This document shows, piece by piece, positions 18,201 through 21,200 of a DNA stretch of 64,000 nucleotides (within the stretch, counting starts at the first letter, position 1; every line of letters begins with the position of its first letter). Origin of the DNA: Escherichia coli (GTDB lineage Bacteria > Pseudomonadota > Gammaproteobacteria > Enterobacterales > Enterobacteriaceae); the NCBI RefSeq assembly GCF_044324785.1, contig NZ_CP172128.1; one strand, given 5' to 3'. Position numbers: made by a program.

Positions 18201-21200
18201 CGTCAGAAACACAAACGCCCCGCAGAGAAAATTCGCCAACATTCTCCTTTTTAATGGCGCGCAATGCATCGCGGCAGGCCCGTTCGGTATGAAAGGCCTG
18301 GCTGTGCACCGCCAGTGTGGGCTGACGGGCATCACCGGAAGAGACATTAAAGGGCGATGAAAGCCAGAAAATCAGTAGCCACATGCGTCACACCTCGTCC
18401 TTTTTATGCGGGTATCTGGACAGAATATTGAGCGCCTGTAATGGCGCTTCATGCATTTCACGGATACAACGGGCATCGGTGATATTTTCCCGGTAATGTG
18501 TGGTTTCCAGCATCATATGATGCATATGGAGCATCCGGGCCAGGGCTGCGCGGAGTTCTTCAATATGTTGTTCATGGGAATGCTGGCGGGGCTGTATCCG
18601 GCAGAGAGGGATAACCTCCACATCATCCGGGTGCGCGCGAAGCCACGCGTCAGTGACTGCAATGTCGTCAGTGTAAAACCATGTGCCGGATGTCCCGTTG
18701 GCCAGAAAACGCATTTTCCAGGCTTCTGGGGTGGCGGTTGTGTTGTTATCTTTCATGGTGCCACCACTCATTCAACAGGCTTAATGCTGTCCAGGCGCAG
18801 TCTGCTCAGACTGTCGTGGCTGCCACAGCGGCGTCCGGTGCTTTTGCTGTAGCACTCCTGCCCCCTGATACACCATGCCGTTGGCGTTTCGTAGAGGCTG
18901 ACACGTCGGGTTTTATCTTTAATGATGAGAAGCCCGGTGTGAGTTTTTGTCTTTTTCATCGGTGGGGTACAAACGCAGAAATTTTGTTGTCATTACATCA
19001 TCAGTTTTAGCCTGCAGAGACGCTGAAAAATCAGCGTTTTCAGACCCTGTTCAGGTTAGTGAATATTCTTGCCTGGCCTTTCGGCAATATCAATCCCCTG
19101 GAGTTGCATGGATATGCCCATACCGTTGACCATGAGGCTGTTTATGGACTGAACACCACATTTCATCATGAGCTCAAAACACAGTGCGCTGAGCATGCCG
19201 AGCGCCTCTTCTGAGGACTGGCAGTGTGTATTCAAAAGAGTATTGAACTGTTTAACGATATCCGGGGTGAGGCACATACTTTGTATTTCGTCTTTCATGA
19301 CTACTCCTTATTTCAGGCATTTTGCATTTTGGGTTAATAACACGAAGCCCGTAGACGGAAAACCTGAGGCGTTCGGATGGGATAATTCCCGGGTATTTTC
19401 CTGTTCCGGATACAAAAAATATAACGGCATGAAAAGGATTGTGGCGGACAGGAAAACAATTAGAATAGCTGCGGGCGCTTGAGGCTGTATGCCGAAAGCG
19501 TTTTGTGGACGGCATGCAGCAGAAAGCCCCAGGCGATCTTTTTATCAATCAACCCAGGGCCCACTGTAATGCCTCAACAACATTATAGTAGCCCGATGAC
19601 GGCCGAAAGGCAATGGAGGGGCTGCGATGCCACAACGAACGTTTTTAATAATGTTAATCGTCGTCTGTGTGACGATACTGTGTTTTGTCTGGATGGTGAG
19701 GGATTCGCTTTGCGGATTTCGTATCGAGCAGGGAAATACGGTGCTTGTGGCAACGTTAGCCTACGAAGTTAAACGTTAACGGGCAACACGGCGGCAGGAC
19801 ATCTGCCGCCGGATTGTTGCGAAGGCTGACCTCAATGCGCCTTGTTTGTCTTTTTTACCGGACGATGGATCCCACTCCTCCTCATCAGTTCGTAGCAGAG
19901 TGTACTCAGCATGGCAAGTGCAGCTTCTGATGATTTACAGTGTGTATTCAGGAGGGTAAGAAATTGTTTAAAAACATCAGGGTTTATACTGGTGCTTTGA
20001 TATTCGTTACTCATAGTATTTCCTTTCAGGTCATTATTACTTCCGGATTTAACATGATGTCTGTAACCATAAAATAATGAACGTGTTCCGGGAGTCCTTG
20101 CCGTGTAGTTTCCCGTAAAAATACTGTTGTGCATTACATGTCATTAGGTGGAAACCGATTGTGGCAGACTGAAAATCGATTAGAATAGCGGCGGGCGCTT
20201 GAGGCTGTATGCTGAAAGCGTTTTGTGGACGGCATGCAGCAGAAAGCCCCAGGCGATTTTTTTATCAATCAACCCAGGGCTCTACTGTAATGCATCGACA
20301 ACATTATAGTAGCCCGATGACGGCCGAAAGGCAATGGAGGGGCTGCGATGCCACAACGAACGTTTTTAATAATGTTAATCGTCGTCTGTGTGACGATACT
20401 GTGTTTTGTCTGGATGGTGAGGGATTCGCTTTGCGGATTCCGTGTCGAGCAGGGAAACACAGTGCTTGTGGCAACGTTAGCCTACGAAGTTAAACGTTAA
20501 CGGGCAACACGGCGGCAGGAAATCTGCCGCCGGATTGTTGCGAAAGCAAACCTCAATGCGCCCTTTTTTACCTGGATTTCTGCAGCGCGTTTCAGCATAG
20601 CATGCAGTTCTGTGCTGATCCTTGCTTCCAGTCGGGCAGTTTGTGTTGCAGATGGCATGATTTGTACTTCCTGAATATACTGAACGGCAAATTGCCGTAT
20701 TGTGCTAATTACAGTCTGATACAGGGACGGCAGACAGGCATTCTGCCTGAAAAGAAAAAGCCGGTTCAGAGAAAACCGGCTGACGGATTACCGTCTAACA
20801 GTTGGTCGCTACCTTACAATACTTCTGCAACAGGCACACCGGCAACTTTTTCCCATTCTTTAACCCGATACCGAATCATCTGCGGGAAACGCTCTTTGTA
20901 CTCATATCCACGTGCAGCCATGGTGTGCATGGTGTTGGCCAGCGTCCTTGCTGAGATGCCGGAGATTTCAAGAGGGATCATCGGCAGACTCACATAGGTG
21001 GTGTGGATTTCCAGCTTGCCGTCTTCAGCAACTGTTCGGGTGAAGTTGTGAATATCCAGACCAATCACATCCATGACATTGTTTGGGTAAATGCGCACAT
21101 ACAGCATGGTGCCGTTTTTAATGTCGATCCCGAAATAGCAACTCTTCGAGAATGACAGTTGCTCGTAATCGCTGGTCGGCGCAAAGGGACTGCTTTCTTT

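Follow-up and report, generated by a model that had tools for sequence, protein, structure and literature searches.

Two pnd loci of the hok/sok type, most probably joined from two related plasmid lineages, on an IncK2/Z plasmid of Escherichia coli

We analysed a stretch of 64,000 nucleotides of an E. coli contig (NZ_CP172128.1, assembly GCF_044324785.1; referred to below as the window), which belongs to a conjugative plasmid of the IncK2/Z type (I-complex). As had been described in the initial annotation, it carries two tandem modules, each made up of a Hok/Gef-family toxin gene and a small ORF that is divergently oriented with respect to it (Table 1). The modules are arranged head-to-tail with a period of 720-721 bp. 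Both toxins consist of 50 aa and indeed differ at a single residue (I33V); residues 7-46 match Pfam PF01848 (HOK_GEF, E 2e-12), and the score against the NCBIfam HokA model (66 bits) stays under the cutoff of 89. The mok-like frames that had been noted before are present in both copies. The direct repeats comprise 19431-19560/20151-20280 (92% identity) and 19563-19847/20284-20568 (96%), at an offset of 720-721 bp, and the copies are identical across 142 bp (19577-19718). The near-identity of the hok blocks was thus seen correctly, but their length is about 417 bp, at 94.3% identity between copy 1 and copy 2, and not 395 bp at some 95%. Module 1 resembles the single-copy loci of a pCT-like lineage (lineage A) and module 2 those of a CP056818/CP027378-like lineage (lineage B).

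Table 1. Features of the tandem pnd region, in window coordinates
Feature	Position	Strand	Remarks
Small gene 1	19056-19298	-	80-aa orphan, full length; AAGGAG ribosome-binding site; WP_000650933.1
Hypervariable allelic patch	19100-19430		first ~65 codons of small gene 1 and upstream intergenic region
pnd-1 promoter (inferred)	19439-19466	+	TTGTGG, 16 nt, TAGAAT; read by eye
pnd-1 full-length mRNA (predicted)	19473-19842	+	Rfam RF01794 and end-to-end fold
Putative Sok-like antisense gene 1 (pndB)	19517-19587	-	-10 box TATAAT at 19587-19582; from sequence and fold
mok-like (pndC) leader frame 1	19569-19772	+	67 codons, overlaps hok start
hok-family toxin gene 1 (pndA)	19627-19779	+	intact ORF, 50 aa; annotated as Hok/Gef family protein
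Small gene 2	19832-20014	-	truncated fusion ORF, 60 aa
Recombination junction (proposed)	19865		lineage-A pnd-1 3' flank on the left, lineage-B small gene on the right; 1 nt microhomology
pnd-2 promoter (inferred)	20159-20186	+	from sequence
pnd-2 full-length mRNA (predicted)	20193-20563	+	Rfam RF01794, repeat register, lineage-B diagnostic SNPs
Putative Sok-like antisense gene 2	20237-20308	-	from repeat register, SNP table and duplex calculation
mok-like (pndC) leader frame 2	20290-20493	+	ORF overlapping hok start
hok-family toxin gene 2 (pndA)	20348-20500	+	intact ORF, 50 aa; I33V relative to copy 1
53-aa ORF, N-terminal TacA/DUF1778 antitoxin remnant	20497-20658	-	overlaps pnd-2 3' end

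By their sequence hallmarks, both blocks can be recognised as classical pnd loci, i.e. type I toxin-antitoxin units. The Rfam covariance scan for hok/sok that had been proposed as a check yielded a match over the full length of RF01794 (hok-leader/sok; positions 1-157 of a model in sense orientation) in each copy, running from the mRNA +1 to the hok AUG, with 123.4 bits for copy 1 (19473-19629) and 119.7 bits for copy 2 (20193-20350) against a gathering score of 59. The 5' element of the pnd-1 mRNA, GGGCGCUUGAGG (19473-19484), is predicted to pair with the 3' element CCUCAAUGCGCC (19830-19841), and the MFE fold joins both mRNA ends (z = -6.5). The same elements recur in pnd-2 at 20193-20204 and 20551-20562, so that the region end of 20552 given earlier cuts the 3' fold-back element of pnd-2, which reaches to about 20562.

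A simple consensus scan for promoters and terminators flagged neither the pnd promoters nor those of the antisense genes, and these promoters were called by eye and from their register with the Rfam match. The RF01794 match begins 7 nt downstream of the pnd-1 promoter, at 19473, and both hexamers of this promoter are invariant among the K2/Z-type loci compared, whereas the -35 hexamer is changed at 19443-19444 in both IncI-gamma loci compared. The putative pndB RNA of copy 1 would run from about 19575 to 19517 (predicted ends) and consist of a 5' tail, a hairpin and UUUCU; the minus-strand fold has a z of -4.2, and every lineage compared has the same -10 box. The antisense sequence of copy 2 differs from it at three to four positions near the 5' end. 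Since each copy has an Rfam leader match, a mok-like frame, a predicted antisense promoter and hairpin and a fold-back, no protein partner is needed, and the repeated pairing with a small ORF, regarded earlier as unexpected for hok/sok loci, does not call for one. Both loci appear complete and are probably functional.

The pnd system is a textbook plasmid addiction locus of the hok/sok type. The units in the window have the same make-up as the pndACB loci of R483, R64, R16 and pCT (a pndA toxin, an overlapping pndC frame, a pndB antisense RNA, here putative, and a fold-back mRNA) and lie in the same slot of the transfer region, between the trbA side and excA/traY, but differ from them in that two units of two allelic types stand in tandem. 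A primer and a recombineering arm for pCT pndACB match module 1 with 0 mismatches (19434-19453 and 19797-19836), and on sequence grounds module 1 can be equated with the experimentally studied pndACB of pCT. The nucleotide identity to pnd of IncI-gamma/K1 plasmids is 90%. With hok/sok (parB) of R1 the window units have in common the HOK_GEF domain, the RF01794 leader, a mok-type coupling frame and the 5'-3' fold-back, whereas the toxin sequence and the plasmid group differ.

Based on these hallmarks and on published work on pnd and hok/sok, the pnd mRNA would be stable, and base pairing between its 5' and 3' ends would keep it from being translated, while pndB, a short and unstable Sok-like antisense RNA made from within the leader, would block translation of the mok-like frame, to which the translation of hok would be coupled. 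Upon loss of the plasmid the antisense RNA would be gone first and the membrane toxin would then kill the cell. The literature is mixed on this point: pnd of R64 is reported to be needed for plasmid maintenance, whereas for pCT it was reported that inactivation of pndACB did not reduce plasmid stability, so that in this backbone killing or stabilisation by pnd would be a putative role. Orthogonal specificities of the two antisense RNAs were considered as well, but the non-cognate duplexes are predicted at -111 and -119 kcal/mol, compared to -128 and -134 kcal/mol for the cognate ones, and are thus still very stable, which makes cross-reaction and redundancy of the two antisense copies more likely in the duplex calculation.

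The pCT knock-out could also be taken to indicate that recombination has left one pnd copy behind as a relic that is decaying and no longer functional, the more so as the tandem seems able to collapse by homologous recombination: one locus (L020) carries a single-copy hok1/hok2 chimera that looks like a pop-out deletion of the tandem. Such decay is unlikely, however, as in both copies the hok and mok frames are intact, the fold-back elements and both promoter hexamers are preserved and the Rfam leader scores in full, and the differences between the copies are the same as those that separate functional-looking single-copy alleles.

With respect to the small genes, the 80 aa given before for the first product was correct. 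Small gene 1 heads a series of small backbone genes that continues leftwards (63, 122-127 and 71 aa) and is 100% identical to the gene of the single-copy plasmid CP142932 and to that of the single-copy locus L006. The second product, described before as a family member of 61 aa, has 60 aa and is encoded by a truncated fusion and not by a shorter relative: codons 1-50 represent a lineage-B allele, with 98% nucleotide identity to the full-length 80-aa genes of the single-copy loci L004 and L014, and the final 10 codons (RPVKKTNKAH) come from the 3' flank of pnd-1. Over the common part the two proteins are alike at 30 of 50 residues. The 100-aa version of small gene 2 in RefSeq (start at 20134) was rejected, as the alignment of all alleles begins with the ATG at 20014, and this start codon is served by a ribosome-binding site of its own. 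The exact 60-aa product was found in 304 contigs, and small gene 2 most likely represents a fusion remnant without a function.

The initial annotation treated the small ORFs as real genes, and in this it was right: homologues of the 80-aa protein with 51-100% identity occur in about 480 plasmids and the dN/dS against other alleles is 0.1-0.25, which is not what chance ORFs look like. These values point to a real gene that is under purifying selection and that exists as ancient mosaic alleles (dS above 1). Searches of Pfam, NCBIfam, PHROG and PADLOC with the 80-aa protein matched nothing, and a profile search of 1.84 billion representative proteins returned only 18 members of the family. The AlphaFold model consists of three helices (pLDDT 65, i.e. 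low confidence) and matched no PDB fold below E 3.8. The protein appears to be a helical, cytoplasmic orphan of the plasmid backbone.

The first part of small gene 1 and the intergenic region upstream of it make up a hypervariable patch, in which the window and L003 are 55-75% identical, compared to 98-100% on both sides, and modules 1 and 2 about 60%. This variable cassette, which always abuts the pnd promoter, is swapped between B/O/K/Z backbones that are otherwise ~100% identical, with sharp recombination boundaries. There is a slim chance that the 80-aa gene is a hypervariable mosaic specificity or modulator gene, either functionally coupled to pnd (e.g. by control of the divergent promoter) or determining plasmid-plasmid or plasmid-host interaction; in the latter case its diversity might be kept by frequency-dependent selection, by analogy with the nearby exclusion genes excA/traY. 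The unusually deep mosaic alleles of this orphan family in near-identical backbones could merit a small experimental look.

We also determined how far the small gene accompanies hok, as a search for co-occurrence had been proposed. The small gene adjoins pnd, divergently, in every B/O/K/Z context sampled (L003, L004, L006 and L014-L020), in line with the pairing noted initially, and both moved jointly into the IncF mosaic plasmid L014. The association does not extend further: the pnd block is present in 1890 plasmids against 479 for the small protein, and a pnd unit of 90% identity occurs without any homologue of the small protein in at least 1411 plasmids. The small gene is absent from the IncI1/I-gamma and K1 contexts sampled; in IncI-gamma/K1 plasmids pnd abuts trbA, whereas in B/O/K/Z plasmids an extra small-gene block separates trbA from pnd. 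Conversely, neither hok nor sok was found with the homologue of IncF plasmid pSTEC309 and with four distant homologues of the small protein, and the homologue loci L005 and L009-L013 are without hok. In L011, the slot that pnd has in the E. coli plasmids is taken by hha, with an excA-like fragment on one side and the small-gene homologue on the other. The small protein thus does not follow the toxin across replicons and lineages, and by these comparisons its pairing with hok appears to be a matter of synteny within one plasmid backbone.

The strict divergent adjacency in the B/O/K/Z contexts, the joint move into an IncF mosaic and the purifying selection on the 80-aa gene would all be compatible with a functional third component of pnd in B/O/K/Z plasmids, being either a regulator of the divergent pnd promoter or a protein antidote. 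We hold this to be quite improbable in view of the many plasmids with pnd only, and of the homologues that occur without hok. In the published accounts of killing and stabilisation by pnd of R483 and R64 no protein of the 80-aa type is involved, and the Pfam, NCBIfam, PHROG, PADLOC and PDB searches connected the protein to no known antitoxin, DNA-binding or defence family and to no solved fold. Moreover, small gene 2 is truncated while pnd-2 is still intact in a widespread lineage. The 80-aa protein is most likely unrelated to the control of Hok.

An important question is how the two units came to lie side by side. As had been observed, the hok blocks are much more alike than the small-gene parts (94% versus 66% identity), which the initial annotation, assuming a tandem duplication, took as a hint of gene conversion or selection on the toxin block. 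Each copy, however, matches a different single-copy lineage, and the two are joined at 19865. In BLAST comparisons the window from 17000 to 19865 matches L006/L003 at 96%, and from 19865 to 22999 it is colinear with L004/L019, with only about 91.5% identity of L004 and L019 to the window across the entire right arm. On either side of the toxin ORF, the SNPs are those of lineage A in hok-1 and those of lineage B in hok-2. The 142 bp of identity looked like a conversion tract, but this was ruled out by the presence of the same 142 bp in the single-copy lineage-B plasmid L019 (CP027378); L004 differs at five sites within this segment.

Because the hok copies retain the SNPs of their own lineage, gene conversion is not required. 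The proposed selection does stand, in the form of conservation of the whole pnd transcription unit in all lineages, and the hok blocks seem unchanged for this reason and not by mutual homogenisation; the small-gene parts seem diverged because the gene exists as old, mosaic alleles. The 90% homology with IncI-gamma plasmids runs from 19432 to 19841, the same limits as those of the internal repeat, and the pnd unit would accordingly be described best, from the alignments, as a discrete conserved cassette. The tandem would have originated from one illegitimate join at 19865 between two related IncB/O/K/Z plasmids that had different alleles at the same locus, and two pnd copies would lie next to each other because these plasmids recombined. 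Lineage A would have contributed small gene 1 and pnd-1 together with a 3' flank of about 23 nt past the end of the pnd-1 mRNA, and lineage B small gene 2, cut after codon 50, together with pnd-2 and the TacA remnant. We regard this account as a whole (two classical pnd loci, a heteroallelic join and a small gene that most likely has no part in Hok control) as highly probable. An in-situ tandem duplication of the small-gene and hok module, followed by divergence of the small genes while conversion or selection kept hok alike, would fit the head-to-tail order with its 720-721 bp period and the 142-bp identity, but is hardly tenable, as each module has a near-identical single-copy counterpart elsewhere, its own small-gene allele included, the two hok genes have retained different SNPs diagnostic of their lineages on either side, the 142 bp of identity are found in a single-copy lineage-B plasmid as well, synonymous sites are saturated between the small genes compared to about 6% difference in the hok blocks, and the right flank with the TacA remnant is specific for lineage B.

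This right flank consists of a 53-aa ORF, which matches positions 1-23 of the 80 of Pfam PF08681 (E 4.8e-4), is labelled 'antitoxin' or DUF1778 in databases, and also follows the single hok in L004 and L020. In contrast to TacA (DUF1778)/TacT, where the antitoxin domain is full, the ORF holds only a fragment of that domain. Its neighbours are hok-2 and excA, and no acetyltransferase (GNAT) toxin gene adjoins it; judged from its sequence, it would not be a working Hok antitoxin. In annotation and comparative work on IncK2/IncB/O plasmids the region should be treated as a heteroallelic recombination scar with a truncated fusion ORF and a TacA remnant, neither of which is to be annotated as a novel 'antitoxin' gene.

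Hok 'islets', in which 2-6 hok homologues lie less than 2 kb apart, hold 10% of the Hok genes and have been ascribed to duplication within the locus (bioRxiv 10.1101/2025.08.07.668861). The window is islet-like, with two hok genes 721 bp apart that belong to one sequence cluster, but in contrast to the islets of that preprint it would represent a join of alleles from different plasmid lineages. As such it would illustrate clearly how a hok islet can form by recombination between plasmids and not by duplication, and how it can collapse again through homologous recombination. The pnd locus and clustered hok genes as such are already known and documented, so that the finding is largely ordinary and of little import for basic biology. 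IncK2 and IncB/O plasmids are important vehicles for blaCMY-2, both in poultry and in humans. The tandem-pnd arrangement, of which NZ_CP029742 and p1_020022 are examples, was found in 89 PLSDB plasmids and in 55 of 5426 complete E. coli genomes and represents an established lineage.

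At an offset of 720-721 bp, the repeat is made up of two pieces, one of 130 nt (92% identity) and one of 285 nt (96%), which combine into a 417-bp block of 94.3% identity, and upstream of 19431/20151 the identity between the two modules (each a small gene with a pnd unit) drops to about 60%. What the initial annotation had observed was confirmed: two 50-aa Hok ORFs that differ in one residue, mok-like frames, near-identical hok blocks with diverged upstream parts and two minus-strand small ORFs, although the second of these proved to be 60 aa long, its final 10 codons having no counterpart in the family. 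The interpretation given there was partly supported, holding for the anatomy alone.

Coordinates of features in and around the two modules
Feature	Position	Strand	Remark
ALIL pseudoknot (IS3 frameshift element)	2702-2788	+	
STAXI RNA motif	6366-6523	-	
AgrB antisense RNA	16194-16283	-	
71-aa backbone gene	18169-18384	-	phrog_3766, E 2.5e-11
63-aa backbone gene	18768-18959	-	phrog_1226, E 7e-17
Small gene 1	19056-19298	-	80 aa
Cottell et al. confirmation primer	19434-19453		
Candidate pnd promoter, TTGTGG-16-TAGAAT	19439-19466		
RF01794 matches	19473-19629 and 20193-20350	hok-sense	Rfam
mok-like frame 1	19569-19772	+	ORF
TATAAT box	19587-19582	-	
hok-1	19627-19779	+	ORF, 50 aa
Cottell et al. 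recombineering arm	19797-19836		
Small gene 2	19832-20014	-	
mok-like frame 2	20290-20493	+	ORF
hok-2	20348-20500	+	ORF, 50 aa, I33V relative to hok-1
TacA/DUF1778 antitoxin N-terminal remnant	20497-20658	-	53-aa ORF, Pfam positions 1-23 of 80

Judged by their sequence, both blocks are complete transcription units of pnd, a type I toxin-antitoxin locus of the hok/sok family. The toxin has a Pfam HOK_GEF match, and the proposed Rfam scan for hok/sok found RF01794 full-length in both copies (123 and 120 bits, gathering score 59). As the alignment starts at the 5' end of the mRNA (GGGCGCUUGAG...) and stops at the hok AUG, this model describes the sense leader holding the antisense target; despite its name 'sok antitoxin', what RF01794 picks up in practice is the hok leader and not the antisense RNA. 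In the predicted fold of 19473-19847, the 5' end (19473-19484) is paired with CCUCAAUGCGCC at 19830-19841 (z = -6.5), which would be the fold-back by which hok mRNAs are typically inhibited. The minus strand has a TATAAT box, invariant across all lineages compared, and after it a 5' tail, then a hairpin and UUUCU (z = -4.2), the predicted form of the expected Sok-like pndB RNA. By these hallmarks, the antisense partner that was thought replaceable by a protein is probably present in both copies. The Rfam match starts 7 nt after the end of a plausible pnd promoter. The limits of the homology between the modules (19431-19847) match those of the homology to IncI-gamma/K1 plasmids (19432-19841, 90%), so the conserved block would be exactly this promoter plus the full-length mRNA. 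The two units differ at 3-4 positions close to the predicted 5' end of the antisense RNA, and predicted non-cognate sense-antisense duplexes between the copies are still very stable, from which we infer that cross-regulation and redundancy are likely. In the IncI-gamma/K1 locus L007 a second, weaker hok-leader-like stretch (4026-4142, 77% to window 19473-19604) lies about 1 kb downstream of pnd.

The element is of a known kind in a recombinant arrangement. By BLAST and alignment to single-copy loci, the window up to 19865 resembles the pCT-like lineage A (96% to CP142932/L006 and CP103647/L003), and from 19865 onward it is colinear with lineage B (CP056818/L004 and CP027378/L019). Each lineage has a single pnd unit. 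In lineage A it is accompanied by small gene 1, which is 100% identical in L006, and by the 3' flank ...GTCTTTTTTACCGGACGA|CTGCTG; in lineage B it is accompanied by the TacA/DUF1778 remnant and by an 80-aa small gene of full length, whose codons 1-50 are 98% identical to small gene 2. At the join, with one shared nucleotide, the lineage-A flank meets codon 50 of the lineage-B small gene, and so creates the 60-aa fusion ORF; its exact product was found on 304 contigs. The tandem duplication proposed initially was therefore not borne out, two single-copy lineages being joined. The hint of gene conversion between the hok copies found no support either: to either side of the toxin ORF hok-1 has the lineage-A and hok-2 the lineage-B SNP states, and the 142 bp identical between the copies are also identical in the single-copy L019, making conversion unnecessary. 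The conserved block moreover has the same limits in three different flanking contexts, which explains its conservation without homogenisation. The single-copy plasmid pSA17024 (L020, NZ_OR916390.1, 2855-3271) has small gene 1, a chimeric hok block whose SNPs are those of hok-1 as far as window position 19740 and those of hok-2 from 19800, and then the TacA remnant, and is likely the product expected from collapse (pop-out) of the tandem by homologous recombination between the blocks.

Module 1 is the pndACB locus inactivated in pCT by Cottell et al., whose primer and recombineering arm match with 0 mismatches. That knock-out left stability unchanged, unlike R64, where pnd is needed for plasmid maintenance. 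Studied Hok homologues include pnd of R483 and R16, and according to a recent preprint 10% of hok genes belong to islets, in which 2-6 copies are spaced by less than 2 kb (bioRxiv 10.1101/2025.08.07.668861).

The small protein is the product of a real gene. Its 80-aa homologues, 51-100% identical, are found on about 480 plasmids, and in pairwise comparisons dN/dS lies at 0.1-0.25 while synonymous divergence has reached or passed saturation. The alleles are mosaic: against L003 the window shows a sharply bounded patch of 55-75% identity at 19100-19430 within flanks of 98-100%, suggesting a mosaic allelic cassette that was exchanged repeatedly. This patch covers the first ~65 codons and the upstream region; against L015 its boundaries differ. 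The family is tiny (18 representatives among 1.84 billion proteins) and matched no Pfam, NCBIfam, PHROG or PADLOC family; the predicted structure has three helices at low confidence and no fold match in PDB. The deep, mosaic allelism of this orphan gene is the one residual curiosity.

The repeated pairing with hok is restricted to a single backbone. Plasmids with the pnd block number 1890, those with the small protein 479, and in IncI-gamma/K1 plasmids trbA or other genes directly adjoin pnd. The co-occurrence search found no hok or sok within 3 kb of the 51%-identical homologue of IncF pSTEC309, and no Rfam hok leader or Hok-like ORF in the DNA near four distant homologues (P0087, P0093, P0094, P0095). 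In another enterobacterial genome (L011, 3361-5051) the order is an excA-like fragment, hha, the small homologue, a 140-aa gene and a counterpart of the window's 71-aa gene, with hha in the place that pnd has in E. coli plasmids. Occurrence and neighbourhood thus place the small gene with the leftward backbone genes, and pnd of the E. coli plasmids occupies a slot filled by another gene elsewhere.

The 1.8-kb region is matched by 89 PLSDB plasmids (99.4-100% identity) and is complete in 55 of 5426 complete E. coli genomes. The plasmids that carry it are conjugative, belong to the I-complex (typed IncK2/Z) and have a MOBP relaxase and an MPF_I transfer system; within the transfer region, the locus sits between a trbABC/nuclease/HTH/small-gene block and excA-traY. 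The 63-aa and 71-aa backbone genes that lie downstream of small gene 1 have matches to phage protein families of unknown function. In the IncK2/Z plasmids L004 (3336-4871) and L015-L018 (~5603-7150) genes for a lipid A phosphoethanolamine transferase (Pfam Sulfatase match) and a DUF2569 protein adjoin the small gene, replacing or following the window's small backbone genes. AgrB, which partners a DinQ-like type I toxin (dqlB), is encoded some 3 kb away from the locus, and on the metagenomic contig L010 (220-307) it is found 180 bp upstream of a distant small-protein homologue.

The TacA remnant overlaps the pnd-2 3' end; databases label it 'antitoxin', but no toxin gene lies beside it. In a 2026 GWAS of IncK2, chicken plasmids were associated with a 'hypothetical gene adjacent to hok/sok' that had earlier carried the annotation 'antitoxin' and has a 60-nt overlap with hok/sok (PMC12987596). 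By its description that gene is probably the TacA remnant, in which case the chicken association would simply mark the lineage-B flank.
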